A DNA stretch of 32,000 nucleotides from assembly GCA_964586355.1 (NCBI GenBank), contig CAZPGO010000030.1, positions 30,001 to 62,000 of the forward strand, read 5' to 3'. Positions 1,124-24,881 of this stretch are shown piece after piece. Origin of the DNA: an uncultured archaeon (GTDB taxonomy: Archaea > Iainarchaeota > Iainarchaeia > Iainarchaeales > CSSED10-239). Positions within the stretch are counted from its first letter, which is position 1. Every line of letters starts with the position of its first letter. Position numbers and translations under genes: made by a program. The notes below the pieces were generated by a model. That model was not told the DNA's origin, did no database searches, and was given only the letters and a program-made list of their open reading frames with translations.

Positions 1124-2773
1124 ATGGATTATTCATTACAAGGTCTAAATAATTATTTATCTACTAAAATAATTTCTGATTATTGGATAAAAAAAATATA
1201 TCCTCCAGAAATAAAGGAAGCACACGAAAAAAGGCAATTACATATACACGATCTAAGCACATTAGGACCTTATTGTGTAGGTTGGGATCTACAATTTTTA
1301 TTAAGAAATGGTTTTAAGGGAGGTCTTGGTAAAATTGTTGCATCTGCTCCAAAACATTTTGATATTGCATTAGGTCAAATAGTTAATTTCATTTATACTC
1401 TTCAAGGAGAAGCAGCAGGTGCTCAAGCTTTTAGTAATTTTGATACTCTTTTAGCTCCTTTTATTTTTTATGATAATCTGGATTATAAAAGAGTAAAGGC
1501 AGATCTTGAAAAATTTATTTATAATATGAATGTTCCAACAAGGGTTGGATATCAAACTCCATTTTCAAATATAACCTTAGATCTAACAATACCATCAACT
1601 CTAAAAAACGAATCAGTAATAATTGCAGGAAAACCTATGGACAAAACCTATGGGGAATTCCAAGAACAAGTTGATATGTTTAATAAAGCAATTTTAGAAA
1701 TTTTTTATGAAGGTGATGCTGGAGGAAACATGTTTTCATTTCCAATACCTACAATAAATGTTACTAGTGACTTTAATTGGGATAGTGATCTTGCAAATAA
1801 AATAATTGATCTAACCATAAAATATGGTACCCCTTATTTTGCAAACTTTGTAAATTCTGATATGAAACCAGAAGATGCTAGAAGTATGTGTTGTAGATTA
1901 AGATTAGATAATCGTGAGCTTCAAAAAAGAGGAGGAGGGTTATTTGGATCTAATCCTCTAACAGGATCTATTGGTGTTGTAACAATTAACCTTGCACAGA
2001 TAGGTTATCTTGCAAAAACAAAAGAAGAGTATTTTGAAAGACTTGGTTATTTAATGGATCTTGCTAAAAAATCATTAGATCTAAAAAGAAAGATTGTTGA
2101 AAAGTATACAGAGGATGGACTATACCCTTATTCTAAATACAATCTTTCACAGATACATGATAGATTTGGATCTTATTGGAAAAATCATTTTTCTACTATT
2201 GGTCTACTTGGTATGAACGAATCTGCTGTTAATTTTTTAGGTGAAGGCATATATACAGAAAAAGGTCAGGCTTTTGCTATTGAAGTTATGGATTTTATGA
2301 GAGATAGAATACAAAAATATCAAGAAGATACAGGAAATTTATATAATCTAGAAGCAACTCCAGGAGAGAGTACTACTTATAGATTTGCAACTTATGATAA
2401 AAAAGAGCATCCTTCAATAATTGTTGCTAATGAAGAAAATTATCAACAAGGTGCTCAGCCATATTATACAAATTCAACACAATTACCAGTAAATTATACA
2501 ACAGATATTTTTGATGTCTTGGATTTACAAGACGATTTACAATGTAAGTACACTGGTGGAACAGTTCTTCATTTTTTTATTGGTGAAAAAAAACCTTCTA
2601 GAGAAGCAATAAAATCATTAATAAAAAAAATCTCTAAAAATTACAAATTACCATACTTTACATTTAGTCCAACATTTTCAATTTGTCCAAAACACGGATA
2701 TATTTTTGGAGAGCATGAATATTGCCCACTTTGTGATAAAGAAATAGGGTATATAGAAAAGGAGGAAAAGTAA
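1124..2773 (+). CDS. nrdD: Anaerobic (class III) ribonucleoside-triphosphate reductase NrdD, large piece. The frame is open upstream to 740 and encodes an ATP-cone, so the true N-terminus is almost certainly upstream of 1124.
   Basis: NrdD hallmarks are present: LGPYCVGWDL, ARSMCCRLRLD (thiyl-radical Cys loop), GGGLFGSNPLTGSIGVVTINL, and the C-terminal Zn-ribbon CPKH...CPLC. The upstream in-frame translation (740-1123) gives an ATP-cone-like YILNRKDEKITYNIYKIKLAILKAL...AYVIYRKQ and the conserved DWQVKENSN. Confidence 0.9.
   Translation: MDYSLQGLNNYLSTKIISDYWIKKIYPPEIKEAHEKRQLHIHDLSTLGPYCVGWDLQFLLRNGFKGGLGKIVASAPKHFDIALGQIVNFIYTLQGEAAGAQAFSNFDTLLAPFIFYDNLDYKRVKADLEKFIYNMNVPTRVGYQTPFSNITLDLTIPSTLKNESVIIAGKPMDKTYGEFQEQVDMFNKAILEIFYEGDAGGNMFSFPIPTINVTSDFNWDSDLANKIIDLTIKYGTPYFANFVNSDMKPEDARSMCCRLRLDNRELQKRGGGLFGSNPLTGSIGVVTINLAQIGYLAKTKEEYFERLGYLMDLAKKSLDLKRKIVEKYTEDGLYPYSKYNLSQIHDRFGSYWKNHFSTIGLLGMNESAVNFLGEGIYTEKGQAFAIEVMDFMRDRIQKYQEDTGNLYNLEATPGESTTYRFATYDKKEHPSIIVANEENYQQGAQPYYTNSTQLPVNYTTDIFDVLDLQDDLQCKYTGGTVLHFFIGEKKPSREAIKSLIKKISKNYKLPYFTFSPTFSICPKHGYIFGEHEYCPLCDKEIGYIEKEEK
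2761..2766 (+). promoter_or_regulatory. Shine-Dalgarno-like GGAGGA serving the mini-ORF at 2774
   Basis: GGAGGA lies 8 nt upstream of the ATG at 2774, inside the last codons of the nrdD large piece. The same GGAGG-type motif precedes dnaK, the pilin genes and the ORF at 5699. Confidence 0.5.
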
Positions 2774-2926
2774 ATGGAAGCAAATATAGAAGAATTAAAA
2801 GCAAAAAGACAAAAATGTGAAATTTTTTCTAGAGTAGTAGGATATGTAAGAAGAGTAGATGCATGGAATTATGGTAAACAAGCAGAGTTTCATGATAGAA
2901 AATTATTTAATACAGATAAGAAGTAA
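2774..2926 (+). CDS. 50-aa glycyl-radical peptide of NrdD, encoded as a separate ORF (not in the ORF track)
   Basis: The ORF translates as MEANIEELKAKRQKCEIFSRVVGYVRRVDAWNYGKQAEFHDRKLFNTDKK. It contains the class III RNR glycyl-radical signature SR(V/I)xGY...WNxGKxxEFxDRK. It starts immediately after, and in the same frame as, the nrdD TAA at 2771-2773. Confidence 0.7.
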   Translation: MEANIEELKAKRQKCEIFSRVVGYVRRVDAWNYGKQAEFHDRKLFNTDKK

Positions 2927-2931
2927 TTAAC

Positions 2932-3600
2932 ATGGAATTAAGAATAGGTGCAATAGAAAAATTTAGCACAATAGATTATCCTGACAAGATATCTTGTGCT
3001 ATTTTTTTAAAAGGGTGTAATTTTTTTTGTGGTTTTTGTTATAATAAACAACTAGTTTGTAAAGAACTATTGGACACCACTCCTGATCTTCCCCTAGAAG
3101 AACTTAAAGAATTTTTAAACAAACGTGTTGGCTTAATTGATGCGGTTGTTGTTAGTGGTGGAGAACCAACAATATATGGCGATTCTCTTATTTCTTTTAT
3201 TAGAGAGATAAAAACAAAAGGTTATCTAATAAAATTAGACACAAATGGTTCAAATCCAAAAGTATTAAAACAAATAATTTCTGAAAATTTGGTTGATTAT
3301 ATTGCTATGGATTTAAAAGATTCTTTTGAAAATTATGATAAATATACTTTTGTTCCTGTTGAAAACATCAAAGAGTCTATTAATTTAATCCTAAATTCCA
3401 ACATAGCTCATGAGTTTAGAGTTACCACTCACCCAGAACTAACTTTGGAGAATTTTAATATTTTATTAACTTATGTTCCTGAGCAAAAGGTTCTTGTCCA
3501 AGATTTCATGAACACCAATACTATAAAAGAATATCCTGATGATTCTAAAACAATTTTTTCACAATTATCAAAAGAGGACAAAAGATATATTTTACGTTAA
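2932..3600 (+). CDS. nrdG: Anaerobic RNR activating protein (radical SAM)
   Basis: The CNFFCGFC motif is the CxxxCxxC radical-SAM cluster, and VVSGGEPT is the SAM-binding GGEP motif. The gene sits directly downstream of nrdD. Confidence 0.88.
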   Translation: MELRIGAIEKFSTIDYPDKISCAIFLKGCNFFCGFCYNKQLVCKELLDTTPDLPLEELKEFLNKRVGLIDAVVVSGGEPTIYGDSLISFIREIKTKGYLIKLDTNGSNPKVLKQIISENLVDYIAMDLKDSFENYDKYTFVPVENIKESINLILNSNIAHEFRVTTHPELTLENFNILLTYVPEQKVLVQDFMNTNTIKEYPDDSKTIFSQLSKEDKRYILR

Positions 3601-3624
3601 TATTTTTAAAAAGAGAGATTAATT

Positions 3625-5670
3625 ATGGTTTTTGTAAATACAATAATAAGCAATTCAAATGAAAAAGAAATATTTTCTAAAGAAAAATTAACTATTTTAT
3701 TATTTGAAAATATGTGTACTATTGGTTCACCAAATTTAAATCTTGCAGAAAAACTTTCTTTTTTAATAGTTGATAAAGTTAATGCTAGTTTTTCAGAGTC
3801 TATTTCTTTTGAAAAATTAGATGATATTATAAAAGAGGTTTTATTTAAAGAAAATCAAAAAGATCTCTTACAAGCATATATTTTTAAGAAATCAAAACCT
3901 GATCATTCTTTAATAGATCAGGAGCTTAAAGAAAACATATTAAAATTTCTTTTGAATTTAAATGATTCTGAAAATATTTCTTCTTATTTAATAAATTTAA
4001 ATAGTCAATTAAATGAATTACAGAATAACACCCATGAAAAAATAAACAAAAATATTTTTGATTATATAAGAGAGGGTTTATTTTACCCAAGTTCAAAGAT
4101 TTTAAAAAGTATTTCAAAAAATCATTATTTTTCCTCCACATTTTCTTTTCATATTGAGGATACCTTAGAGTCTATTTTTGATAATTTGTCTTTATCTAGT
4201 AAGCTTCAAAAACAAGGTCTCTCAATATCAATTGATTTAAGTAAAATAAGATCTCAAAAAGAAAAAATAAAATCTATTAATGAAAATGCTTGTGGACCTA
4301 TTAAAGTTGCAAATTTATTTAGATCTGCAAAGGCTATGATTGGGTACTCTATAAAAACATCTAGTAATGTTTTTTCTATATCTATTGAACATCCAGATAT
4401 AATCTCTTTAATTAATTATAATTTTTCAGAAACCTCTGATAATTTCACAATTTTAGTTCCAAATAGATTTGTTGAAAACTATATGAATAATGAAGACTAT
4501 GTTATTGAGACTGTTTTTGGTAATCAAAAAATAACTCCTTCAATAATTTTTGATCTAATTTGTTCAAAAATAGCTATTGGGGAAAAAATAAATCTTGTCT
4601 TTGTAGATCTGATGTCTAAAAAAAACCCAATCTCTTTAGAACAAAAAATTTTTTCAATTTCTTCTGTCGGTTATCAACCAGTAATTGACAAAAGTGGTTT
4701 TCTCTCGGGGGTAATTGATGTTTCAAAATTAGTAAATATTTTAGGAGATGCTAAAACTTTTGATTGGCAAAAACTAAAAGCAATTATTTGGGATTCTGTA
4801 GAATTTTTAGATAATCTTATTGATTCTTCTAATTATATTAATGATGAATATATGCAAGCGGCAAAAGATTATAGGCAGATCTATTTGTCTATAACTGGTT
4901 TTGCTACTCTTTTATCTAAACTAAATATTTCCTATAATAGTGATGATGCGATCTTTTTTGCAGAAACTCTATCTAATTTTATATCCTACTATGCAAAGCT
5001 AAAATCCACTGAGCTTGCAAAAGAAAGAGGTCCATTTTTAAAATTCATAAAAAGTAAATATGAACAATCCTCTTTTTCTTTTGAAAAATCTTCTATTCAA
5101 AAAACTTTGTTTTCAAATGATCTAAGCAAATCTAAAAAATTATTAAATAATATGCCTTTAATTGATTGGGTTGAACTTAGAAATAATATTAAGAAATACG
5201 GACTTAGAAACGCAACTACTTTTGGAATAATTTTTTCTGATTTTTATTCTATTGCAAATGATTCTACTAACTCTGTTAATCCTATTTTGAGTTATAAAAG
5301 TACATATCTAATTAATGGTTATAAATCAGAAAAAATAAAGAAAGAACTTTCCTTAACTTCCCCAGACATAAATGAAAATTGGACAGAAGAGGAAATTGAT
5401 TCTTTTTTATCTAATGATCTAAAAAAGTTGTTTGTTAAAGCCAAAAATATAGATCCTTATTTTTTAATAAGATTACAATCTGTTTTTGAAAAAAATTCTG
5501 ACGGGCTTACAAATATAAATATTTTTATTACTGATAATTATACAATCTTAGATATAAAGAATCTAATAATCGAAAGTTACATGTTAGGAAATTCCTTATT
5601 TTTGCCAGAAAAAATAAATGGTCAAAATGACTTTAATACAGATAAAAAAACGAAAAAAAATAGTTTATAA
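3625..5670 (+). CDS. Ribonucleotide reductase-fold protein (NrdJ/NrdA-like alpha chain with a degenerate ATP-cone), predicted to be catalytically inactive
   Basis: The protein is collinear with RNR alpha-chain motifs, but every motif is degraded. SSTFSFHIEDTLESIF replaces SxCFxLxxxDSxESIF. GLSISIDLSKIR...ACGPIKVANLF replaces GGGxGxxxSxLRP...SGPVSFM. KTSSNVFSISIEHPDII replaces GGRRGAxxxxLxxxHPDI. SSVGYQP...SGFLSGVIDVSKLV replaces NPCGEQP...ESCNLGSINLSKFV. RQIYLSITGFATLL replaces RRIGLGxMGxAxxL. GLRNATTFGIIFSD...NSVNPI replaces GxRNxxxxxIAPTG...SGIEP. Confidence 0.75.
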   Translation: MVFVNTIISNSNEKEIFSKEKLTILLFENMCTIGSPNLNLAEKLSFLIVDKVNASFSESISFEKLDDIIKEVLFKENQKDLLQAYIFKKSKPDHSLIDQELKENILKFLLNLNDSENISSYLINLNSQLNELQNNTHEKINKNIFDYIREGLFYPSSKILKSISKNHYFSSTFSFHIEDTLESIFDNLSLSSKLQKQGLSISIDLSKIRSQKEKIKSINENACGPIKVANLFRSAKAMIGYSIKTSSNVFSISIEHPDIISLINYNFSETSDNFTILVPNRFVENYMNNEDYVIETVFGNQKITPSIIFDLICSKIAIGEKINLVFVDLMSKKNPISLEQKIFSISSVGYQPVIDKSGFLSGVIDVSKLVNILGDAKTFDWQKLKAIIWDSVEFLDNLIDSSNYINDEYMQAAKDYRQIYLSITGFATLLSKLNISYNSDDAIFFAETLSNFISYYAKLKSTELAKERGPFLKFIKSKYEQSSFSFEKSSIQKTLFSNDLSKSKKLLNNMPLIDWVELRNNIKKYGLRNATTFGIIFSDFYSIANDSTNSVNPILSYKSTYLINGYKSEKIKKELSLTSPDINENWTEEEIDSFLSNDLKKLFVKAKNIDPYFLIRLQSVFEKNSDGLTNINIFITDNYTILDIKNLIIESYMLGNSLFLPEKINGQNDFNTDKKTKKNSL

Positions 5671-15491: not shown

Positions 15492-17405
15492 ATGGCATCA
15501 TATATAGATGAATTAAAATCTCAATTAAACAAAGCTAAAGAGAATAAACCAGAAGAAGTTAAATTAGAAAAAAAGCAGATGGATTGGTCTCAACCAGATA
15601 AACAAAAAACACAAGATCTTTCTTCTGAAAAATCTATAACTGAAGAAAATATTTCCAACACAAAAAATAATAATCAGTCTAAATCAGATAGTTTCTTAGA
15701 ATTAGATTCTTTAAAAGATGCTTTTTCAAACAAATCTAATAAGCAACCATATTCTGATATTAATAAAGTCCAAACAGAGCAAAATAAAGATTCTGATTTA
15801 AATTTTAAGGAATCTCACCAAGAATCAAAACTAGCATCTAAGGAAGATTCTGTCTTTGATGAGAATATAAAAGAAACAATTGATAGATCTGTTAATTCTG
15901 GAAAAATAGATGTTGAAAAAATAGAGACTAAAAAAGATAAACCTAATTTTGAAAAAGTATGGGCCGAAAATTCTCATTTAGTTACAAAGTATGGTGATGT
16001 TGAGATTTATAGAATTGAAAATCAAGCACTTTATCATTATAAAATTCCAACCCCAAAACCAACAGCAAGTCAGAAATTAATAATTAATACCTTAAAGGAA
16101 GCAGCAACAAGATTAATTACAATAGATCCTTATAAGATCAGAGATCCTTTACAAAGAAAAAACATTTATTATCAAAAAATTTTAGATATTTTAGAAAATG
16201 CACCTGAAATAAATGTTCCAAAGCACATGTTTGATTTTTATGCAGGGGCAGTTGTAAAAGAAATGGTTGGTTTTGGTCAAATTGAACCATTATTACAAGA
16301 TGACAAGTTAGAAGAAATTATGATCGTTGGTCCAAATAAACCAACTTATGTTTATCATAGAGATTATGGTATGATGACTAGTAATGTTGTATTTTATTCT
16401 GATGATGGGATCTTAGAAATTATTGATAAAATTTCAAGAATCTTAGGAAGAAGAGTTGATATTTCTAATCCTTTATTAGATGCAAGACTTCCAGATGGTT
16501 CTAGAGTAAATGCAACAATTCATCCAGCATCCATTGATGGGGCAACAATCACTATTAGAAAATTTAAAGCTGACCCTTACACTATTGTAGATCTAATTAA
16601 ATTTCGTACAATTAACTTAGAAGTTGCTGGATTTTTATGGTGTATTGTTGATGGGTTTGGGTCAAAACCAGCAAACATAGTTATATCTGGTGGAACAGGT
16701 TCAGGAAAAACTACTTTATTAAATGTTTTAGCAAACTTCATTCCAGATTCTAATCGTGTATTAACTATTGAAGACACTGCTGAGCTAAAATTACCTATAA
16801 AACAAGTAATTAGGTTTGAAGGACGACCACCTGGCTTAGAAGGTAAAGGTGAACTAACATTAGATGTTTTAGTAAAAAACAGTTTAAGAATGAGACCTGA
16901 TAGAGTAATAGTTGGTGAAATTAGACACACAGAAGCTTTATCTTTATTTACTGCTATGAATACCGGCCACGATGGTTGTATGGGTACAATTCACGCGAAC
17001 TCTCCTAGAGAAACATTAGTAAGAATAACGTCCCCCCCAATGGAAGTGCCTTTGATGATGCTTGCCGGTCTAGATTTTATAGTTGTTCAGAAAAGATTAA
17101 ACACTAGTAAAGGAATGGTAAGAAGAATAGTAAATATTGCTGAGATTAGTGGTGTTTTAGATAATGATCCAAAGGCAGATATTATTTTTAAATGGGATCC
17201 AAACACAGATTCTTTAAAAAGAACAGAGGCACCTATAAAGTTTTTTGAAATGATAAAAACATATACGAATTATACAGATCAGGATATAAAGAATATTTTG
17301 ACAAAAAGAATAAGTATTTTAAATGATTTAGTTACTAAGAATATACATGCTCTTGACGATGTGTCAGAAACTATTCAACATGAGTATCTTGATAGAAAAT
17401 CATAA
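15492..17405 (+). CDS. Type IV filament assembly ATPase (archaeal FlaI/EpdL/TadA-like, T2SSE family) with a roughly 155-aa low-complexity N-terminal extension
   Basis: Walker A is SGGTGSGKTTLLN, Walker B is RPDRVIVGEIR, and the His box is TGHDGCMGTIHAN. The conserved LPDGSRVNA segment is also present. Confidence 0.9.
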   Translation: MASYIDELKSQLNKAKENKPEEVKLEKKQMDWSQPDKQKTQDLSSEKSITEENISNTKNNNQSKSDSFLELDSLKDAFSNKSNKQPYSDINKVQTEQNKDSDLNFKESHQESKLASKEDSVFDENIKETIDRSVNSGKIDVEKIETKKDKPNFEKVWAENSHLVTKYGDVEIYRIENQALYHYKIPTPKPTASQKLIINTLKEAATRLITIDPYKIRDPLQRKNIYYQKILDILENAPEINVPKHMFDFYAGAVVKEMVGFGQIEPLLQDDKLEEIMIVGPNKPTYVYHRDYGMMTSNVVFYSDDGILEIIDKISRILGRRVDISNPLLDARLPDGSRVNATIHPASIDGATITIRKFKADPYTIVDLIKFRTINLEVAGFLWCIVDGFGSKPANIVISGGTGSGKTTLLNVLANFIPDSNRVLTIEDTAELKLPIKQVIRFEGRPPGLEGKGELTLDVLVKNSLRMRPDRVIVGEIRHTEALSLFTAMNTGHDGCMGTIHANSPRETLVRITSPPMEVPLMMLAGLDFIVVQKRLNTSKGMVRRIVNIAEISGVLDNDPKADIIFKWDPNTDSLKRTEAPIKFFEMIKTYTNYTDQDIKNILTKRISILNDLVTKNIHALDDVSETIQHEYLDRKS

Positions 17406-17422
17406 TTATAAATTGATTGTTA

Positions 17423-18574
17423 ATGACAGAAGTAAATGATAAACAATTAGAATTATTAAAAAAAGAGATGTCTAAATCTAAAGATAACAGCAGTAATATA
17501 GATCTAGATGCTGTTGATAGTATAGTAAACAAACTAAAACAAAAAGACAAATCTAAAGGCATAACAGGCCCAGTTTCAGAATCTCATTTAAAAGAATTAA
17601 GAGATATTATTTCTGAAGGAAAATTAACAAAATTAAATATAGACACTGAAGCAAAGCTAATGGAAGGTTCAGAATCTGTTATAGACAAAAAAATAGTGAA
17701 ATTATATAAACCTTTTCAAGGATTTATAAACACAATTGTAAAATACATGCTTAAGCAAAGTATAGGCAAAAAGATTTCTTTTTATCTTTATTCTGCAAAT
17801 ATTAAAAGAACATTAGTACAACATTTGGTTTTAGCAGTTTTGTTTTCTATGTTAGTTACTGTTTTTTTATCTTTTTTATTATTTATTATTTTAACTGTTA
17901 TTAATCCATTATTTTTAATAGTTCTTCCATTTATTGCTTTAGCAATTTTTCTATTTTCTATTTTTATATTTTCATATATTTTGCCAATGCAGAAAGCAAA
18001 GCAAAGAGGAGCTCAAATAGATACTGAATTGCCATATGCTTTAAGACACCTGTCTACCGAATTACAAGCAGGTATTGGATTATATAAAACTCTACAATCT
18101 ATTGCAAAAAACGATTATGGTTTATTAGCTGACGAGCTTAGTAGAACAATAATTGAAATAGAGAACGGGACTGATACAAAAACAGCATTAAGACATACTG
18201 CATTAAGAAGTCAATCCAAAAATTTCAATATTGCTTTGTTTCATATAATAAGAACATTAAATACTGGTGGAAATTTAGCACAAAGTATTGATGGAGTTGC
18301 AGAAACAGTATCTTTTGATCTTTTAGAGTCTGCTAAACAGTTTGGAGAAAAAATGAATTTTTTTGGAATTATTTTTATATTTGTAGCTATTGTTTTGCCG
18401 GTGTTTTTAGCAGTTTTATCAGCAATAGCAAATGCGCCAATTGGTCAAGGTGGCGAATTGTTTTTACCAGGGGTTTTAAGTGCAGAATTATTAGGGGTTG
18501 TTTATTTAGTGGTACTTCCTGTAATTTTAGGATTTATATCCTTTTATATTAAAGTAATAGAACCAAAAACATAG
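17423..18574 (+). CDS. Pilus platform membrane protein, single T2SSF domain (TadB/TadC/EpdJ-like)
   Basis: A T2SSF-type helical domain (ELPYALRHLSTELQAGIGLYKTLQSIA...GGNLAQSIDGVAETV) is flanked by TM helices. The ORF track starts at the TTG at 17417, and the ATG at 17423 is two codons in. Confidence 0.8.
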   Translation: MTEVNDKQLELLKKEMSKSKDNSSNIDLDAVDSIVNKLKQKDKSKGITGPVSESHLKELRDIISEGKLTKLNIDTEAKLMEGSESVIDKKIVKLYKPFQGFINTIVKYMLKQSIGKKISFYLYSANIKRTLVQHLVLAVLFSMLVTVFLSFLLFIILTVINPLFLIVLPFIALAIFLFSIFIFSYILPMQKAKQRGAQIDTELPYALRHLSTELQAGIGLYKTLQSIAKNDYGLLADELSRTIIEIENGTDTKTALRHTALRSQSKNFNIALFHIIRTLNTGGNLAQSIDGVAETVSFDLLESAKQFGEKMNFFGIIFIFVAIVLPVFLAVLSAIANAPIGQGGELFLPGVLSAELLGVVYLVVLPVILGFISFYIKVIEPKT

Positions 18575-18576
18575 AT

Positions 18577-19485
18577 GTGATTAAAGTGAAATTATTAGAT
18601 AAATATCAAATATATCTTTACTCAATAAAAATAAAAGTTCCTGCATTATATTGGATTGCTTCATTTTTTTTGATAGCTATAATATTTAGTGCCTTAATTT
18701 ATTTAATTTTTAGAAGTTCTATTTTTTCAATTTTGGTTTTTACGGTTGTTTTGGATTTGGGGGTGGGTACCCCTTTATTTTTATATACAAAACATATTGA
18801 AACAATTGAAAGATTTTGGCCAGATGCATTAAGATTGATTGCAGATACTATGAAAGCTGGAACTTCTTTTGATTTTGCATTAAGAGAAGTGGCATCAGCT
18901 GATTTTGGACCAGTTTCTGTAGAGTTTAATGAAGTAGTAAGAAGATTAGAGATGGGCGATACAACAAATGATGCATTAACTCATTTATCTATAAGAGTTG
19001 ATTCTAAAATAATAAAAAGAACAGTTACAATTATTCAAGAGTGTTTAAGAACTGGTGCTCAGTTAGCTGAAGTTTTAGATGAAATTGCAAATGATACTAA
19101 ATATATGTACAGAGTAAAAGTAGAAAGACAAACAAAAACCCTTTTACAAACTATTTTTGTTTTTGCTGCAGGAGGAGTTATAGCACCTTTTATTTTTGGA
19201 TTAACAAACGTTATTACACAGTTTTTAACAAATGTTGCAACAGCATCAGGCATTGCAAATGAAACTTCTATGGCTATTGCAATAGCAACACAGACAACTA
19301 TAATTTTATTATTAGATATTTATGTTATGATTGAAGTTGCAGCAGCATCATTAATGATAAGTCTTATGAGAAATGGAAAAATAAGCGGTGCTTTTATTTA
19401 TTTTCCTATAATGCTTACAGTAGCATATATTGTGTATTCTATATCTCAATTTATTTTAAATCAGATGTTAGTTACTATGGTATAA
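18577..19485 (+). CDS. Second pilus platform membrane protein, single T2SSF domain (TadB/TadC/EpdK-like)
   Basis: The domain reads FWPDALRLIADTMKAGTSFDFALREVA...TGAQLAEVLDEIANDT and is flanked by TM helices. It has a GTG start 2 nt after the upstream stop. Confidence 0.8.
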   Translation: MIKVKLLDKYQIYLYSIKIKVPALYWIASFFLIAIIFSALIYLIFRSSIFSILVFTVVLDLGVGTPLFLYTKHIETIERFWPDALRLIADTMKAGTSFDFALREVASADFGPVSVEFNEVVRRLEMGDTTNDALTHLSIRVDSKIIKRTVTIIQECLRTGAQLAEVLDEIANDTKYMYRVKVERQTKTLLQTIFVFAAGGVIAPFIFGLTNVITQFLTNVATASGIANETSMAIAIATQTTIILLLDIYVMIEVAAASLMISLMRNGKISGAFIYFPIMLTVAYIVYSISQFILNQMLVTMV

Positions 19486-19505
19486 ATTTTTTAATGTGAT
19501 AAAAT

Positions 19506-19697
19506 ATGAAAAAAACACAGAAACTAGAAAAAATAATTAAAGATCAAAAAGCACAGATCTCTTTAGAATTTTTATTAATTATGGGAGTTGTTGTTTTAAT
19601 TTCATTAATTGTTGGTTTTTATTTAAAACAGACTTCTGCAAATCAAGCAAATAAAATTACAGATTATCAGGATAAAAGTTATCAAGGTAATAACTAA
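19506..19697 (+). CDS. Small class III signal peptide (pilin-like) protein, 63 aa
   Basis: The N-terminus is ...KDQKA|QISLEFLLIMGVVVLISLIVGF. Gln is at +1 and Glu at +5, followed by a hydrophobic helix. This is the archaeal Epd-type prepilin signature. Confidence 0.6.
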   Translation: MKKTQKLEKIIKDQKAQISLEFLLIMGVVVLISLIVGFYLKQTSANQANKITDYQDKSYQGNN

Positions 19698-19744
19698 ATT
19701 GGTTTGTGGTTGTTTTTATTGGTTTAGTTTACAAAAAAGAAAAG

Positions 19745-19754
19745 TATATAAATA
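19745..19754 (+). promoter_or_regulatory. Candidate TATA box for pilin paralog 1
   Basis: The element tatataaata lies about 55-65 nt upstream of the ATG at 19810. The same element is duplicated upstream of paralog 2. Confidence 0.35.
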
Positions 19755-19809
19755 TATTAGTAATAATATTAATATATTATTTTTTTTATTAATTTATGGA
19801 GGGAAACTT

Positions 19810-20001
19810 ATGTTTAAAAAGAAAAAAGGACAAGGTGCTTTAGAGTATCTTTTGTTAATAGGTGGTGCGGTATTAATTACTGTTATTGTTATTGCATTAT
19901 TGGTTGGTATGGGTGGTCAAAGTAGAGACACAGCTCAAGATCAAGCAAATAGAGTTCAATCAGCAACAGATGTACCACAACCAGCTCAAATAATTTCTGT
20001 T
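19810..20001 (+). repeat. Conserved 5' module (about 64 codons) shared by pilin paralogs 1-3, copy 1
   Basis: The nucleotide sequence is near-identical to 20485-20676 and 20989-21183. Most differences are at third codon positions. Confidence 0.8.
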
Positions 20002-20364
20002 GACGCATCTTATAATGAATGTACACAGAATGGAGATGCAACAATAACAGTAAATTGGAGAGCTTTAGGTGAAGGAGGAAGTCATAGGTTATATGTTTCT
20101 GATTCATCTAATAAAGATCTAAATATTACACATTTGCCAAATACTAGTTCTGGTGAGGGTAATGTGGGTCATGAAATAGGAAATAGTGGTGGTACTACTG
20201 GCCCAGATGATCTAATTATTTTAAATCCAAACAATTTAGCTGTTACTGATTTCAATATTGGAAATGTAAAAAAATGTGGTGATTCTTATTATGTAAGAAT
20301 TGAAACAACAAAAAATAATCAAACAGTTGTTTCTGCTAAATACCAGTTTAGTTGGGTTAATTAA
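19810..20364 (+). CDS. Type IV pilin paralog 1 (184 aa): class III signal peptide plus FN3/Ig-like globular domain
   Basis: The N-terminus is MFKKKKG|QGALEYLLLIGGAVLITVIVIALLVG, with Q at +1 and E at +5. GGAGGG lies 6 nt upstream of the ATG. The ORF-track start at 19699 adds an implausible leader. Confidence 0.8.
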   Translation: MFKKKKGQGALEYLLLIGGAVLITVIVIALLVGMGGQSRDTAQDQANRVQSATDVPQPAQIISVDASYNECTQNGDATITVNWRALGEGGSHRLYVSDSSNKDLNITHLPNTSSGEGNVGHEIGNSGGTTGPDDLIILNPNNLAVTDFNIGNVKKCGDSYYVRIETTKNNQTVVSAKYQFSWVN

Positions 20365-20376
20365 TTTTAATCCTTC

Positions 20377-20385
20377 TTTTTTTTT
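20377..20385 (+). terminator. Oligo-T tract (T9) after pilin paralog 1, a candidate archaeal terminator
   Basis: A run of nine T begins 13 nt after the stop codon and is followed by a new TATA-like element. Confidence 0.35.
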
Positions 20386-20404
20386 CAAAAAATTAAATAG
20401 AAAC

Positions 20405-20414
20405 ATATATAAAT
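20405..20414 (+). promoter_or_regulatory. Candidate TATA box for pilin paralog 2
   Basis: The element atatataaat matches the one upstream of paralog 1. It is followed by the same ...tttatt(t)aatggagg(g)aaa(c/t)ttATG leader. Confidence 0.35.
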
Positions 20415-20484
20415 GTATTTTACTTAATATATATTAATGTTTTTTATAAAACAAAAATAAAATTTATTTAATGGAGGAAAATTT

Positions 20485-20676
20485 ATGTTTAAAAAGAAAA
20501 AAGGACAAGGTGCTTTAGAGTACCTTTTGTTAATCGGTGGTGCTGTGTTAATTGCAGTTATTGTAATTGCTTTATTAGTTGGTATGGGTGGTCAAAGTAG
20601 AGATACTGCTCAAGATCAAGCAAATAGAGTACAACAAGCAACAGATGTTCCACAACCAGCTCAAATAGTTTCTGTA
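20485..20676 (+). repeat. Conserved 5' pilin module, copy 2
   Basis: See copy 1. Confidence 0.8.
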
Positions 20677-20964
20677 AGAGCTCCATATGATGAATGTGGT
20701 GATGGAAATATTAGTGTTAGTTGGAGACCACTTGGCGAAGGCGGAAGTAATGAAATGGTTGTTTTAGATTCTAGCAATACTGAATTACAGATCGATGATG
20801 CAGGTACAAGAAAAGTACTTGATCCAAATGACTTAACTTTTGATGTTAATGTAACTTTAACTTCTGCTCATGAGTGTGGTGATTCTTACTATGTAAAAAT
20901 AATTACAGAGAAGAACAATCAAGAAGTTACTTCATCAGCATATCAATTTAGTTGGATTGACTAA
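20485..20964 (+). CDS. Type IV pilin paralog 2 (159 aa)
   Basis: It has the same signal peptide and helix as paralog 1. It shares the WRPLGEGGS landmark and the C-terminal CGDSYYVKIITEKNNQEVTSSAYQFSWID. Confidence 0.85.
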   Translation: MFKKKKGQGALEYLLLIGGAVLIAVIVIALLVGMGGQSRDTAQDQANRVQQATDVPQPAQIVSVRAPYDECGDGNISVSWRPLGEGGSNEMVVLDSSNTELQIDDAGTRKVLDPNDLTFDVNVTLTSAHECGDSYYVKIITEKNNQEVTSSAYQFSWID

Positions 20965-20988
20965 GTTTAATTTTAAAAGGAATTGTAA

Positions 20989-21183
20989 TTGATCTTCACA
21001 AAAAAAAAAGGACAAGGTGCTTTAGAGTATCTTTTGCTAATAGGTGGTGCGGTATTAATTGCGGTGATTGTAATTGCTTTGTTAGTTGGTATGGGTGGTC
21101 AAAGTAGAGATTCTGCCCAAAATCAATCTAATAAAGTACAACAAGCATCAGATCTTCCGCAACCTGCTCAAATAGTATCAATA
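20989..21183 (+). repeat. Conserved 5' pilin module, copy 3
   Basis: See copy 1. Confidence 0.75.
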
Positions 21184-21537
21184 AATGCAGTTTATAGTAA
21201 TTGTCCTAGTTTTGATGGAGATCAAAACAAAACTTCTAAAATTTCTTTTACTTGGAGACCACTAGGAGAAGGGGGTACTTATCATTTATCTTTTTATGAT
21301 TTTAGAGATCGCCAGTTAAAGATAATGTCTGCTGAGGGGCACACCATCGATAGTGATGGTGTTGATTCTTTAATTTTAGATCCAACAGACTTAACCTTAG
21401 ATATAAATGTTTTAAGATTAAATACTACTGAAATTGTACATAATTGTGGAAATTCATATTATGCGCAAATAATTACTGAAAAAAATAATCAAAAAGTAAA
21501 ATCATCAATTTTTGGTTTTAGTTGGATTCCAAATTAA
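20989..21537 (+). CDS. Type IV pilin paralog 3 (182 aa), with a TTG start and an A10 tract at codons 4-7
   Basis: The N-terminus is (M)IFTKKKG|QGALEYLLLIGGAVLIAVIVIALLVG. The C-terminus is CGNSYYAQIITEKNNQKVKSSIFGFSWIPN. Confidence 0.8.
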   Translation: MIFTKKKGQGALEYLLLIGGAVLIAVIVIALLVGMGGQSRDSAQNQSNKVQQASDLPQPAQIVSINAVYSNCPSFDGDQNKTSKISFTWRPLGEGGTYHLSFYDFRDRQLKIMSAEGHTIDSDGVDSLILDPTDLTLDINVLRLNTTEIVHNCGNSYYAQIITEKNNQKVKSSIFGFSWIPN

Positions 21538-21587
21538 TTTTTAAGAAAAAAATAATTTTTTAAAAATAATAAAAACAGGAGTTTATT

Positions 21588-22058
21588 TTGAAAAAAAATA
21601 TTAATTCAAACAAAGGACAAGGTGCCTTAGAATATTTGCTAATTATCGGTGGTGTTTTAGTTATTGCTGTTGTTGTTATCTCATTAATTATGTCAACAGG
21701 CAGATCAAACACAGACAAAGTAAATGAATCAGAACAACAACATTCTCAATTAATAGATAGCACTATTATTCCACCAATGATTCTTAAAGTAAATTGTTTA
21801 GATCAAGGTGGTAATGACACTAATATTATAGTAACTTACAACAGATCTACAACAAATGGGGTTGCTGAATATTGTTTAGTTTTAAACGAATCAATAACCA
21901 CAAATTGTAAACCACCTGCAACAACAGGCAATGTTGTTTTTTTTGATAATATTTCTGGATTAGCTACTGGAGTAAAACACAAAGTTTCTTTAGTTGCAAA
22001 AAGAGGAGATTATATGTCTCAACCTGCTTTACCAACACCAACTTGTGAGGTTGAATAA
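21588..22058 (+). CDS. Type IV pilin paralog 4 (156 aa), divergent
   Basis: The N-terminus is ...SNKG|QGALEYLLIIGGVLVIAVVVISLI. A different beta-rich, Cys-containing C-terminal domain follows. The start is TTG, preceded by AGGAG. Confidence 0.75.
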   Translation: MKKNINSNKGQGALEYLLIIGGVLVIAVVVISLIMSTGRSNTDKVNESEQQHSQLIDSTIIPPMILKVNCLDQGGNDTNIIVTYNRSTTNGVAEYCLVLNESITTNCKPPATTGNVVFFDNISGLATGVKHKVSLVAKRGDYMSQPALPTPTCEVE

Positions 22059-22074
22059 TTTTAATTTGGTAGCT

Positions 22075-22254
22075 ATGAAAAAATTAATTTTAGATCAAAG
22101 AGCTCAAGTATCTGTTGAATATCTAATCTTAATTGTTTTTGGAATGATGCTTGTAATCACAACAGGTATTATAGTAATTAATATCAATACTTTAGTAGCT
22201 GTTGCAAAATCTAAAATATTATCTTATAGAGATAATATCATTGCTACTTTATAA
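22075..22254 (+). CDS. Small class III signal peptide (minor pilin-like) protein, 59 aa
   Basis: The N-terminus is MKKLILDQRA|QVSVEYLILIVFGMMLVITTGIIV. The ORF-track start at 21994 overlaps paralog 4 and is unlikely. Confidence 0.6.
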   Translation: MKKLILDQRAQVSVEYLILIVFGMMLVITTGIIVININTLVAVAKSKILSYRDNIIATL

Positions 22255-22265
22255 TTTAGAAAAAT

Positions 22266-23393
22266 ATGTTTTCTATTTTTAATTTTCTGATTTTTTTTGT
22301 TTTATTAATTTTTATTATTCTTTGTACTTATTTTGATTTAAAAAAAAGAATTATTCCTAATAAATTAATTTTTATTTTTTTAATACTTTTTTTATGTTTG
22401 TTTTTAATAAAACTGGTTTTGTTTTTTTCATTTTCTTTATTATATAATACTTTTTTGTCAGTAACAATAACTTTTTTTGTTTGTTATTTACTTTGGGAGT
22501 TTGGGGTGATTGCCGGAGGAGATCTAAAATTTTTTTTTGTAATTTCTATTTTACTGCCTTTTAATCTCTCTGTTTTTTCTAATTTTTTTAATATTGGTTT
22601 AAATCTTACTTTATTAAAACACCCTATTTTTTCCATTTTTTTATTGTTTTTTAGTTTTTTAATGATGTTACCCTATATTTTATTATTTTCTATTATTAAA
22701 CTATTTACAAAAAAAAATCTTATATACTTAAAAAGATTTTTTTTTACAAAAAAGAATTTTGAAAATTTATTTTTAAGTACTCTTTCTTTATTTTTAGTTT
22801 CTATTATTGTAAGCTTTTTTGCTCTCTCTTTTAATTTGATTTTTTTGTTTATATTTTCTTTTATTTTGTTTAATTTAATTATGTTACTTAAAAATAAAAA
22901 TCAACATTATTTTATTTGCATTTTGATATTTTCTTTTTCTGTTTTAATTTTTTTAGAAATAATATTAAAACAATCTTTTTTTGTGTTTACAGATCTTGGT
23001 TTAATTTTTGTGATTAATATATCTGTCTCTTTTCTTTTGTTTTTAATAAAATTTACAAAAGAAAATATTTTAACAACCCCAATAAGTATTAAAAATTTAC
23101 AAGAGGGGGTAGTTCTATCTAAAAATTATTATTTTAATAAACAAACAAACAAATTAACTGTTGAAAACACCAGTTTTGTTAATCAATTCAAAAGATTAGT
23201 TTCTGGAACCTATTATCTTAACCTAAAAATAGATTCTAACAAAGCAGGGGGTCTAAAGAAAGAAGACATTGCTTTTTTAAATACTATGTATGAAAATAAT
23301 TTAATAGGCAACTGGATTTATGTTAAAAAAACATTGCCTTTTATGCCTGTTGTGTTAATAACTTTTATTGTTTTAAATTTTATAAAATTTTAA
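22266..23393 (+). CDS. Prepilin/preflagellin peptidase (A24 aspartyl protease; EppA/PibD/FlaK-like), enlarged to 375 aa
   Basis: The first catalytic Asp context is CTYFDLKKRIIPN. The second is GVIAGGDLKFFF (the GxGD box). The terminal LPFMPVVLI matches the PFxP motif. Confidence 0.8.
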   Translation: MFSIFNFLIFFVLLIFIILCTYFDLKKRIIPNKLIFIFLILFLCLFLIKLVLFFSFSLLYNTFLSVTITFFVCYLLWEFGVIAGGDLKFFFVISILLPFNLSVFSNFFNIGLNLTLLKHPIFSIFLLFFSFLMMLPYILLFSIIKLFTKKNLIYLKRFFFTKKNFENLFLSTLSLFLVSIIVSFFALSFNLIFLFIFSFILFNLIMLLKNKNQHYFICILIFSFSVLIFLEIILKQSFFVFTDLGLIFVINISVSFLLFLIKFTKENILTTPISIKNLQEGVVLSKNYYFNKQTNKLTVENTSFVNQFKRLVSGTYYLNLKIDSNKAGGLKKEDIAFLNTMYENNLIGNWIYVKKTLPFMPVVLITFIVLNFIKF

Positions 23394-23406
23394 AGATGTG
23401 TAATTT

Positions 23407-23877
23407 ATGATAAAAAATATTAAAGCACAAATTTCTGTAGAATTCATTATATTATTAGCTATATTTATGTTGTTTTTTCAAGCAACTATTTTGCCAACAA
23501 TAGAGTTTTCTGAAAATATTATAAAAGACACTCATAGCTTAAGTATAGCTAGTGATAATGTTTCTAGATTAATAACACATATAGAAAATTTTTCAAATAG
23601 TCCAGGGTATGGTAAAAGAAGTGTTTTTTTCTATCTTCCTGAGAATGCAACTATTACTTCTTGTGGTGGATCTGAGAATAACATAAAATATAATGTAAAA
23701 ATATCCACTCAAAACCCAATACCCTTAACTTGTGATAGTACTGGTGACTGTAATTTTACAAAAAATATAGAAACCTCTTTAGAAATTAGTTGTTCTCCAA
23801 ATAAGATAGGCCCTGGTTTTTCAGGAAATATTGTTTTAGAAAAAACAAGTATAGGGGAAATTATAATTAATGGTTAG
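23407..23877 (+). CDS. Class III signal peptide protein (pilin-like, 156 aa)
   Basis: The N-terminus is MIKNIKA|QISVEFIILLAIFMLFF. A Cys-rich beta domain follows. Confidence 0.65.
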   Translation: MIKNIKAQISVEFIILLAIFMLFFQATILPTIEFSENIIKDTHSLSIASDNVSRLITHIENFSNSPGYGKRSVFFYLPENATITSCGGSENNIKYNVKISTQNPIPLTCDSTGDCNFTKNIETSLEISCSPNKIGPGFSGNIVLEKTSIGEIIING

Positions 23878-23880
23878 ATT

Positions 23881-24228
23881 ATGAATAAGCAAGGACAGAT
23901 TAGTGTTGAGTTTATAATGATATTAGGTTTGTTATTATTATTTTTGTTTTTTATATTAAACACAACACAAAAAGATCTAAATCAAAATAGAGCAATTCTA
24001 TCTATAAAATCAAGAACTATTGATTTGATTAATTTATCAGACTCTAGAGCTGTTCTTTTAAATATGGATTATTTAATTCAAGGTAGTTATTTAGATGTTA
24101 CCATAAACATAAAAAAAAACGGATCAACATTTACACTGGCTGTTTCTGATTATTTAGATGTAATTGCTTATATCAAAAGAACAACTGGTTTTAGGAATGT
24201 TAATTTAGATTTTGTTTATTTAACATAA
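23881..24228 (+). CDS. Class III signal peptide protein (pilin-like, 115 aa)
   Basis: The N-terminus is MNKQG|QISVEFIMILGLLLLFLFFIL. The gene starts 3 nt after the upstream stop. Confidence 0.6.
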   Translation: MNKQGQISVEFIMILGLLLLFLFFILNTTQKDLNQNRAILSIKSRTIDLINLSDSRAVLLNMDYLIQGSYLDVTINIKKNGSTFTLAVSDYLDVIAYIKRTTGFRNVNLDFVYLT

Positions 24229-24239
24229 GGGTGAATTTT

Positions 24240-24881
24240 ATGATTAGTAAAGATTTATTATATATTCAAATATTTTTTTTATTTTCATTAATAGTTAATT
24301 TATTTACAGAGGGTCTTTTATTTTTAAAGATTTTATTAATTATTTTGCTTTTGTTGTTTATTATAAAGTCAAAAGATTCTTTTATCTATAATAGACAAAA
24401 ATACAACTTTTTTTCTTATGGTCTTTTATTTTTTTCTATTTTATTTCTTTTAACAAATTATCTTACAAGTAGTTATTTTTATATGTTTTTATTTTGTGTT
24501 TTAATATTATATATTTATTTATTTAAGGTTTTATTTAACACCTCTTATGGAGAAGTAATAAGTAATAAAAATGGTTTTATAGGTGTAAAAGTTTTAGATG
24601 CTTTTTACAAATCAAAAAGTCTCTCTTTTAAACATAAAACTCTATTAACAGGTTCAATAGTTGTTTTTTCTTTAACTAGATTTCCTTTAAGAAAAAAACC
24701 AATAGCTATTATAGATGTTGTTCCTCCTTATGACCTAAAACCCAAAAAGCAAAGTACTAAGAGGCCACCAATAAAACACGCAGCAAAGAAAACCCCTAAA
24801 AAGCAAGCGGTTAAAAAAACCCCTAACAAAAAAAACATCTCCAGACAAAAAACTTCAAAAACTATTAAAAAGAAAAAATAA
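24240..24881 (+). CDS. Membrane protein with a small beta domain and a Lys-rich C-terminal tail, function unknown
   Basis: About four TM segments are followed by GEVISNKNGFIGVKVLD...GSIVVFSL and then the tail KPKKQSTKRPPIKHAAKKTPKKQAVKKTPNKKN...KKKK. The ATG at 24240 follows AGGGTGA. The ORF track uses the GTG at 24231. Confidence 0.45.
   Translation: MISKDLLYIQIFFLFSLIVNLFTEGLLFLKILLIILLLLFIIKSKDSFIYNRQKYNFFSYGLLFFSILFLLTNYLTSSYFYMFLFCVLILYIYLFKVLFNTSYGEVISNKNGFIGVKVLDAFYKSKSLSFKHKTLLTGSIVVFSLTRFPLRKKPIAIIDVVPPYDLKPKKQSTKRPPIKHAAKKTPKKQAVKKTPNKKNISRQKTSKTIKKKK

Follow-up and report, generated by a model that had tools for sequence, protein, structure and literature searches.

The 32-kb window analysed here (32,000 nucleotides of contig CAZPGO010000030.1) is AT-rich, with a G+C content of about 27%, carries archaeal genes for the RFC small subunit, PolD and NrdD, and comes from a reduced DPANN archaeon of the phylum Iainarchaeota. 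A single type IV pilus locus spans positions 15492-24228 on the plus strand, and four consecutive pilin genes within it, called P1 to P4 below, are the subject of this study. An earlier note on this DNA had described them as four tandem paralogs with near-identical, recombinogenic ends flanking a hypervariable core, and had proposed that they form a cassette for surface variation or host attachment. The four genes and the elements that accompany them are the following:

19810..20364, plus strand: pilin P1, 184 aa, with a 7-aa signal peptide, an assembly helix and an Ig/FN3-like domain (open reading frame, PF04021, AlphaFold2, Foldseek)
20485..20964, plus strand: pilin P2, 159 aa (open reading frame, PF04021)
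20989..21537, plus strand: pilin P3, 182 aa, TTG start, 24 nt past the P2 stop codon (open reading frame, PF04021)
21588..22058, plus strand: pilin P4, 156 aa, TTG start (open reading frame, PF04021)
19745..19753, plus strand: TATATAAAT element upstream of P1, putative archaeal TATA box, followed by a GGAGG leader
20406..20414, plus strand: TATATAAAT element upstream of P2, putative TATA box, followed by a GGAGG leader
20377..20385, plus strand: T9 run past P1, putative archaeal oligo-T terminator (T8 at the same place in L089, a strain about 12% diverged)

All four open reading frames begin with the prepilin signal that had been read in them, a KKG↓QGALEYLL(L/I)IGG-type start (the arrow marks cleavage), and all match PF04021 (Class_IIIsignal, UPF0333) above threshold, with 29.4 bits for P1, 33.2 for P2, 33.0 for P3 and 34.5 for P4 against a gathering cut-off of 23.7. 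The cleavage site reads KKG↓QGALEYLLLIGG in P1-P3 and NKG↓QGALEYLLIIGG in P4, that is, the [KR][GA]↓Q signature of EppA substrates with Gln at +1 and Glu at +5 (PMC4371748), and a hydrophobic helix follows it. The lengths of 184, 159 and 182 aa given for P1-P3 were confirmed, and the landmarks of the outer domain, W-R-(A/P)-L-G-E-G-G, Cys71 and Cys156, are invariant or nearly so in 100 family members. The duplicated regions upstream of P1 and P2 and the T9 tract are also real: TATATAAAT occurs three times in the window, twice at equivalent sites upstream of P1 (19745) and P2 (20406), each time with a GGAGG leader behind it, and the block AGAAAnnTATATAAATnTATT is common to both upstream regions and conserved in the diverged strain. 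That P3 and P4 lack promoters, as had been stated, is more than the letters can decide; the spacer is 24 nt long between P2 and P3 and 50 nt, AT-rich and with T5/T6 runs, between P3 and P4. Nor is P4 a fourth near-identical copy, as it is only 25% identical to P1 and falls into a separate ortholog group that keeps the same operon position in other species. Judged from these comparisons, P4 is a distinct conserved pilin and not a recent paralog.

An AlphaFold2 model of P1, built with the 100-sequence alignment (mean predicted local distance difference test score, pLDDT, 82), predicts a helix at residues 10-53 followed by nine strands. The best Foldseek matches to the PDB were FN3 domains (tenascin 1ten, with a target-normalised template modelling score of 0.66, fibcon and fibronectin III-3) and Ig-V domains, with E values of 3e-3 to 3e-2. 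The P4 model (pLDDT 74) matched FN3 domains and the Pyrobaculum arsenaticum pilin 6w8u_A at E=9e-4, so that a helix followed by an all-beta domain is predicted for both P1 and P4. The FN3/Ig-type sandwich proposed by the earlier note is thus upheld as a predicted fold. The layout itself is not special, because a helix carrying an Ig-like beta-sandwich is the fold described for all solved archaeal type IV pili and archaellins (PMC7347861). The globular domain of P1-P3 does constitute a narrow family, with 36 proteins at E<=1e-3 in an exhaustive profile search of 1.84 billion representatives; the family profile found no pilin in a sequence search of the PDB, and a metagenome scan with P1 returned 3 loci only, the near-identical JGI strains described below not being among them. 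The same domain also occurs at residues ~55-175 of longer proteins of 350-1,433 aa (P0156, P0158, P0160, P0161, P0162 and P0169; also L020 from 616, L022 from 1919 and L025 from 5004), which appear to combine pilin helix, Ig-like domain and a long C-terminal extension ('giant pilins') and are possibly tip adhesins. In P3, positions 21349-21372 encode 'IDSDGVDS', a conserved DxDxDG-like motif resembling calcium-binding loops.

The most striking property of the array appeared when the window was compared with three JGI contigs (L001, L002 and L003) that are 99.6-99.9% identical to it. Over 20,477 aligned nt, the window and L001 differ in 27 alignment columns, made up of 24 substitutions and a 3-nt indel, and nearly all of these fall into two short patches:

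20131..20195, plus strand: P1 hypervariable loop patch, codons 108-129; 16 substitutions and the 3-nt indel, together 19 columns
20842..20855, plus strand: P2 hypervariable strand patch, codons 120-124, FDVNVTL vs FNVRVDL; 5 substitutions affecting three alternate residues

In other words, 21 of the 24 substitutions lie within 79 nt (binomial p=4e-48), and the only 3 differences outside the patches are all at third positions. The per-site difference is ~0.27 in the patches and 1.5e-4 elsewhere, a ratio of ~1,600. Within the patches the proportion of differing sites is 0.25 for non-synonymous (pN) and 0.05 for synonymous sites (pS), with 18 non-synonymous differences against ~1 synonymous. The P1 patch coincides with the low-confidence loop 108-131 of the AlphaFold2 model. 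P2 has no such loop; its patch aligns with strand 144-150 of the P1 model, where the changed residues occupy one face of the beta-strand. The same segments vary among six P1 alleles, in which L109, P110, N118, G120, H121, G124, S126, G131 and P132 are fixed, and among twelve P2-type sequences, in which the framework is invariant. The L001-type alleles are present in at least 7 contigs and were assembled independently in at least 3 samples. The idea of surface variation therefore holds in this strain comparison, in the form of sharply localised differences on the outer domain.

Where the patch alleles come from was sought nearby. A blastn-short search with both alleles found no donor or template copy of either patch in the 32-kb window or in 20 kb of L001, and a Pfam scan of the window's open reading frames of at least 80 aa found no reverse transcriptase domain. 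Conversion of a patch from another paralog was considered and rejected: the peptide 'IDSDGV' of L001 P1 matches P3 in protein only (ATT GAT TCT GAT GGG GTT vs ATC GAT AGT GAT GGT GTT). Import from a diverged lineage was likewise set aside, since no known allele matches. No allele copies another allele or paralog, as illustrated by the Arg of 'HERG', which is CGT in L001 and AGA in L006. Two observations concern the alleles themselves. Codons 112-117 of L001 P1 encode IDSDGV, the same peptide as in P3 with other codons, which suggests convergence at the protein level. N-x-S/T sequons are found at 20140-20148 (P1 N111-T-S) and 20848-20856 (P2 N122-V-T) in the window-type alleles and are absent from the L001-type; a switch of alleles may therefore add or remove pilus glycans.

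Patch differences of this level are hard to obtain by ordinary mutation, even under selection. We favour an origin (i) from old, selectively maintained alleles that very short recombination tracts would have brought into a recently homogenised genome, because polymorphism at the patches is population-wide, codon indels occur among the alleles and the array itself shows recombinants. A targeted mechanism acting on the patches (ii) is a lesser possibility that we keep in view.

The divergence of the paralogs P1-P3 was computed by the Nei-Gojobori method on a codon alignment, as non-synonymous (dN) and synonymous (dS) differences per site. Over the first 64 codons the three pairs are 83-91% identical in DNA (dN 0.03-0.09, dS 0.37-0.67), and the differences, 3/1/13, 10/3/20 and 7/2/16 by codon position, are mostly at third positions. 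In the core, DNA identity drops to ~58-60% (dN 0.43-0.58, dS 0.8-1.7), with 40-49% identity in protein and the differences gathered in about three segments on a fixed framework, so that the core is not the freely variable stretch it had been taken for. The last 30 codons are 66-71% identical in DNA, with dN of 0.22-0.33, saturated dS (1.7-2.6) and 57-67% identity in protein. Exact shared runs reach 40, 33 and 30 nt at the 5' ends and only 14 nt at the 3' end, in the CGDSYY block. The near-identical ends of the earlier note are thus found at the 5' side, where the regional comparison shows the end-versus-core contrast; the 3' ends show no such contrast and are conserved at the protein level only. 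The 3' end is, on these numbers, conserved by selection on the protein and not by DNA homology.

Across 13 related genomes the module opens with a small pilin, continues with a 'GQGALEYLLLIGGAVLIAVIV' pilin in n copies, then a P4-type pilin and another small pilin, and closes with the peptidase and two pilin-like genes. Most of these genomes have n = 1, L007 and L025 have 2 copies, and the lineage of the window has 3. In the globular part the two L007 copies (a/b) share 52% identity, and neither exceeds 43% with any other sequence; for L025 the figures are 51% between the two copies and no more than 28% with others. Because the copies pair by genome, the duplications are lineage-specific, and P1-P3 are, as far as gene comparison can tell, a recent lineage-specific triplication of one ancestral pilin gene with an Ig-like domain. 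The earlier note had itself named ordinary single-copy homologs as a finding that would speak against it, and most related species do have one copy. Moreover, the 49 N-terminal mature residues are 80-94% identical even between species, so that purifying selection alone explains most of the contrast between a conserved N-terminus and a variable core. The diverged strain L089 carries the full P1'-P2'-P3'-P4' array and allows orthologs to be compared: the dN/dS ratio (omega) is 0.18-0.38 for the globular domains versus 0.04-0.11 for the machinery genes. P2 is the fastest-evolving ortholog (globular-domain dN 0.24, omega 0.38) and P3 the most conserved of the three between strains (omega 0.18).

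Part of the 5' similarity appears to have a second cause. Synonymous sites at the 5' end are not intrinsically slow, because ortholog dS between the window and L089 is alike in N-terminus and core (0.49 vs 0.47 for P1, for example). Between P1 and P2 of the window, dS is 0.37 at the 5' end versus ~1.7 elsewhere, with 13 of 44.5 synonymous sites differing versus 39 of 58 (p = 1.5e-4). Between the two L007 copies it is 0.054 versus 1.02 (p = 4e-8), and an identical run of 92 nt reaches into the leader. In the 5' region P1 and P2 fail to sort by ortholog between the strains, P2 of the window differing by 12 nt from L089 P1 and by 12 nt from L089 P2; P3 does sort by ortholog. Quartet site patterns in this region are mixed (4 genome-specific, 3 ortholog-specific, 3 other), which is suggestive, with homoplasy possible at dS of 0.3-0.5. 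In our reading, conversion of the 5' ends probably occurs from time to time and keeps the assembly domains matched while moving no cores. Gene conversion between tandem copies, as postulated by the earlier note, is thus retained as a homogenising process at the 5' ends of P1/P2 and of the L007 pair, and not as one that diversifies cores; only one end of the genes is alike in DNA, and shuffling of cores between two such ends was not seen.

Population evidence for REARRANGEMENT (array REARRANGEMENTS) comes from three short ENA contigs with altered arrays (L004, L092 and L093). The L004 array starts in the 3' end of P2, passes through a P3-type gene and ends in the spacer of P1 and P2, TATA block included. 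Within the P3-type gene, the helix-linker holds a P1-type tract of 45-60 nt, and the sequence turns to that of P1 at CGDSYY; the 3' junction lies inside a shared run of only ~15-17 nt. This arrangement suggests the product expected of unequal crossing-over between P3 and P1. L092 and L093 contain an extra P2-like gene, 'P2b', behind P2, with a P3-type spacer and start, and a direct repeat of ~130 nt, ~97% identical, is made up in L093 of the 3' end, the spacer and the start. Of all the material, these contigs come closest to the conserved ends with different cores that had been envisaged for the array. Contigs L005, L002, L090, L021 and L016 terminate inside the pilin array, and because repeated 5' ends break assemblies, pilin copy number is probably under-counted in metagenome-assembled genomes (MAGs).

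P3 has a further peculiarity at its start:

21000..21009, plus strand: uninterrupted A10 tract in P3 codons 4-7, candidate phase-variation tract (contig comparison)

P3-type genes begin with TTG ATC TTY ACA AAA AAA AAA GGA. Eight contigs have the tract as A10; it is A9 in L093 (at ~632-640) and L094 (at ~354-362), two contigs of ENA that stem from different samples, and A13 in the JGI contig L003 (at ~524-536). P3 would be switched off by A9 or A13, because both put the TTG start out of frame. The corresponding tracts of P1 and P2 are interrupted (A5-G-A6) and never vary in length. With an uninterrupted tract in the 5' coding region and frame-shifting length polymorphism between strains, P3 has the sequence features expected of a contingency gene, and the tract looks like a contingency tract with putative reversible switching.

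The array sits in a pilus biogenesis operon, whose other genes are:

15492..17405, plus strand: pilus assembly ATPase of the PilB/TadA/FlaI superfamily (Pfam T2SSE, E=6.5e-46)
17417..18574, plus strand: first PilC/TadC-like membrane platform protein, one T2SSF domain (Pfam T2SSF, E=2.3e-15)
18577..19485, plus strand: second PilC/TadC-like membrane platform protein, one T2SSF domain (Pfam T2SSF, E=1.5e-15)
19506..19697, plus strand: small helix-only pilin, 63 aa, KA↓QISLEF (Pfam Class_IIIsignal, E=6e-8)
22075..22254, plus strand: second small helix-only pilin, 59 aa, RA↓QVSVEY (weak Class_IIIsignal match; position kept in all related loci)
22266..23393, plus strand: EppA-like prepilin peptidase, 375 aa, multi-pass membrane protein with a GGD motif at D86 (Pfam Peptidase_A24 and Arc_PepC)
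23407..23877, plus strand: pilin-like protein, 156 aa, KA↓QISVEF (weak Class_IIIsignal match; motif and position conserved)
23881..24228, plus strand: pilin-like protein, 115 aa, QG↓QISVEF (weak Class_IIIsignal and TadE matches; motif and position conserved)

The order is therefore T2SSE ATPase, two single-domain T2SSF proteins, 63-aa pilin, P1-P4, 59-aa pilin, A24 and Arc_PepC peptidase and two pilin-like genes; a PilB-type ATPase and PilC-type proteins lie directly upstream of pilins, as is expected of an archaeal type IV pilus, and a [KRQ][GA]↓Q...E5 motif is present in 8 of the 8 pilin-like proteins of the locus. The ATPase matches both FlaI and TadA of NCBIfam under the family cut-offs. 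The peptidase, with roughly 9-11 transmembrane segments by a crude hydropathy count that is not rigorous, has EppA as its sole NCBIfam match (E=3e-11, covering positions 5-330 of the profile's 334), with a score of 43 bits where the cut-off is 450. The 63-aa helix-only pilin, whose position is kept in all related loci, is a candidate major pilin by analogy with Epd-type systems. The earlier note had been unable to tie these pilins to any characterised archaeal pilus, and here we differ: these pilins correspond to the Epd/EppA system of Methanococcus in their KG↓Q sites with Gln +1 and Glu +5, in the EppA-like peptidase beside them and in the pair of PilC-like genes. From its gene content, the region forms the pilin block of an operon for an archaeal type IV pilus of the Epd/EppA-like kind, and we call it Epd/EppA-like and not a member because the EppA match of the peptidase falls far under the cut-off. 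The pilus genes are syntenic in L007, L009 and L010-L019. Full-length relatives of the pilins are restricted to MAGs of the Iainarchaeota/Diapherotrites, including the complete genome of Ca. Forterrea multitransposorum, and the whole neighbourhood is syntenic in these genomes.

Several features of the surroundings may be recorded here. Just downstream, 24231-24881 encodes a protein of 216 aa that has hydrophobic segments at the N-terminus and a C-terminal tail very rich in lysine (…KPKKQSTKRPPIKHAAKKTPKKQAVKKTPNKKN…); it has no Pfam match, and its position behind the pilin-like genes is conserved. In the related 688-kb contig L007 (17479-20534), a giant surface protein of 2,688 aa with Propeptide_C25, CHB_HEX_C and Fn3_assoc repeats follows the pilus locus. 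The complete Ca. Forterrea genome (CP045477.1; L011, L023) contains a second, more distant match to the pilin family, 34% identical and ~60 kb from the main locus, so that further pilin loci exist in such genomes. At 1124-5670 of the window, genes for the anaerobic ribonucleotide reductase (NrdD) and its radical-SAM activase adjoin a second reductase-like gene (ATP-cone and Ribonuc_red_lgC barrel), and two reductase classes are thus adjacent within one reduced genome. Rfam and tRNA scans of the window gave no match.

Taken together, we consider it probable, though well short of assured, that the locus encodes an Epd/EppA-like pilus with a lineage-specific pilin triplication, whose outer surface is under diversifying selection and whose variants are supplied by short-tract recombination. 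A single ancestral gene for an Ig-like pilin was tandemly triplicated to give P1-P3, as the sequences show. With their signal peptide and assembly helix in common, any of the copies could be processed by one peptidase and polymerised by one assembly machine; purifying selection is the main force that keeps the N-termini the same, joined at some 5' ends by gene conversion. The outer Ig-like domains have meanwhile diverged, and they still vary between co-existing strains in a few surface segments, most clearly in the P1 loop and on one face of a P2 strand. The exposed filament surface may be under diversifying, probably frequency-dependent selection exerted by whatever binds the pilus, be it viruses or a partner or host cell, and the variants may stem from short recombination tracts exchanged among alleles of the population and from unequal crossing-over in the array. 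A choice of subunits would be added by transcription of P1 on its own and of P2-P3 as another unit, and by changes in the length of the A10 tract. Host recognition as such is conjectural: evasion of viruses that use the pilus as receptor and recognition of a partner cell are equally compatible with the data. Pili often serve archaeal viruses as receptors; one virus, SSRV1, is reported to bind the pili of S. solfataricus (PMC7347861).

Several points weigh against this interpretation. The signal of selection in the patches comes from few sites (Fisher p=0.03), the scarcity of synonymous change within them sits awkwardly with the recombination of old alleles, and omega is below 1 over the whole domain, so that positive selection could only be local. 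The window-type patch alleles were found in one contig only, and an exact look-up of the window's own P2 protein gave no record. That the patches are exposed on the surface is suggested by a monomer model and by analogy. The dS contrast is not significant for P2/P3, P1/P3 and the L025 pair, and the recombination test that the earlier note had called for, run as the pairwise homoplasy index (PHI) on the window and L089 copies, was negative (p=0.18 for the whole gene, 0.79 for the core; the 5' end and third positions were also non-significant). Each rearranged array is a single contig of 638-886 nt assembled across repeats, and the A-tract differences could be homopolymer sequencing errors or fixed pseudogenes. 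As the major pilins of Epd-type systems have ~70 aa and two genes of about this size flank the array, P1-P3 could act as minor or tip subunits instead of making up most of the filament.

Much of this would also fit a set of ordinary specialised pilins, in which the 63-aa and 59-aa proteins are the major subunits, like EpdE in Methanococcus, P1-P4 are minor, tip or accessory pilins, and their divergence reflects subfunctionalisation and relaxed constraint. Epd-type (clade-1, EppA-type) systems typically use major pilins of ~70 aa and tandem pilin duplication is common in archaea (PMC4858521); on both sides of the array lies a gene of about this size that every related locus retains, the majority of species carry a single P1-3-type gene and a single P4, and omega over the whole domain is below 1. 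However, relaxed constraint would not concentrate 21 of 24 substitutions, almost none of them synonymous, in 79 nt between 99.9% identical genomes, nor would it make variation recur at the same positions while scaffold residues stay fixed, and P1 and P2 possess strong-looking TATA and Shine-Dalgarno signals of their own. We regard this account as unlikely as a whole, and it could still be right on the role of the subunits while the patches vary anyway. A further-reaching view, that array, micro-patches and P3 A-tract work together as a true system of antigenic and phase variation, with patches rewritten by a programmed mechanism (targeted mutagenesis or unlinked donors) and with copy number and P3 expression switching at high frequency, strikes us as quite unlikely.

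Diversity-generating retroelements are frequent in DPANN genomes, and such an element, or unlinked silent mini-cassettes of the kind known from Neisseria pilE/pilS, might rewrite the patches. The ~1,600-fold excess of per-site difference over the rest of the 20 kb would be accounted for, as would the restriction of the changes almost entirely to codon positions 1 and 2 of NNT-type codons and the presence of A in one allele at 15 of 19 variable sites. Yet no reverse transcriptase was found among the scanned open reading frames of the 32 kb, neither patch has a second copy in either allelic form in the window or in 20 kb of L001, the alleles also differ by an in-frame codon indel, and at 4 of the variable sites A is missing from both alleles (a weak test, given only two alleles and no template). 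The patches also lie in the middle of an Ig-like fold and not in a C-terminal variable region of the C-type-lectin kind, and all copies of the array are full-length genes with start codons and signal peptides, not silent cassettes. We hold programmed rewriting of this sort to be very unlikely. Assembly artefacts, by which de Bruijn assembly of mixed strains across repeated 5' ends would have generated the alleles, hybrids and tract-length variants, seem to us the least credible of these explanations. They are suggested by the many contigs ending inside the array (L005, L002 and L090, for instance), by the shortness of the hybrid contigs (638-886 nt), and by identical 5' runs of 26-40 nt, which exceed small k-mers, in addition to error-prone homopolymers. 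But the L001-type alleles recur across contigs and samples, all variants are in frame and retain the scaffold residues, the run at the L004 3' junction is below the usual minimum k of 21, the terminal repeats of L093 are ~97% identical and not exact, as a graph cycle would require, and the A9 tract was found in two different samples.

DPANN archaea are ultra-small, mostly uncultured and often dependent on other cells, and type IV pili are among the few surface structures that they consistently encode. In the papers that we found, these pili are only listed as 'present' (e.g. PMC8561730). If the diversification proposed above is correct, a pilus subunit is the fastest-changing part of the genome in one lineage of Iainarchaeota, through a few residues of its outer domain, through tandem amplification and perhaps through one switchable copy, and the exact residues that an environmental agent (virus, host or partner) may be 'reading' have been pinpointed, which offers a starting point for metagenomic time series, structural work and studies of co-occurrence. 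This would make it an archaeal counterpart of bacterial pilin antigenic variation, of which we found no documented example. Were the variation programmed, the cell could keep altering the surface of its contact appendage toward viruses or partner cells; were it only fast drift in a tolerant loop, the locus would be an ordinary pilin expansion. Tandem pilins with a shared N-terminus (Haloferax PilA1-6; duplications, PMC4858521), the Ig-like fold and the Epd-like operon are known or expected elements. What we did not find described for archaeal pilins are two micro-patches holding nearly all differences, 5' conversion, array rearrangements and a variable homopolymer such as that of P3.

Among known systems, the Epd pili of Methanococcus maripaludis (EppA-processed EpdA-E, EpdL ATPase, EpdJ/EpdK platform) are the closest in gene content. 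In both systems the KG↓Q sites have Gln +1 and Glu +5, the locus includes a large A24 peptidase of its own, a single ATPase gene and a pair of PilC-like genes (named EpdJ and EpdK in Methanococcus; PMC4371748, Table 1), and the pilin genes are clustered, very small helix-only pilins among them (PMC4371748, PMC4858521). They differ in that the host of the window is a DPANN archaeon and not a methanogen, its peptidase reaches 43 of the 450 bits of the EppA cut-off, its Ig-like pilin is triplicated in tandem with a globular domain of its own narrow family, and its system is known from genes alone. The solved archaeal pilins of S. islandicus, S. solfataricus and P. arsenaticum (6w8u) combine the same helix with an Ig-like sandwich (PMC7347861); however, there is no detectable sequence similarity, P1 matches generic FN3/Ig domains best, at E of 3e-3 or weaker, and its predicted helix is longer (~44 aa).

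The arrangement of the variation invites a comparison with Neisseria pilE/pilS, in which a constant pilin N-terminus is likewise joined to variable patches between conserved framework stretches ('mini-cassette'-like). In the window, however, all copies are complete translatable genes, promoterless 5'-truncated copies and a patch donor are absent from the 32 kb, and the conversion detected homogenises 5' ends and replaces no variable segments. The P3 tract resembles the homopolymer contingency loci of Neisseria, Haemophilus and Campylobacter, which have the same uninterrupted tract just after the start of a surface-protein gene and the same frame-shifting length differences; it differs from them in being seen as A9, A10 and A13 in a handful of contigs, between strains. 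We know of no homopolymer contingency case in archaeal pilins. Strain-level patch hypervariation and 5' gene conversion were not found described for the pilins of Haloferax volcanii either, which are processed by PibD, do not form one tandem array in a biogenesis operon and belong to a different pilin family. Nevertheless, PilA1-PilA6 of this species are several paralogs with a nearly identical N-terminal hydrophobic domain and different outer domains, and they provide what we consider the best functional analogy for P1-P3.

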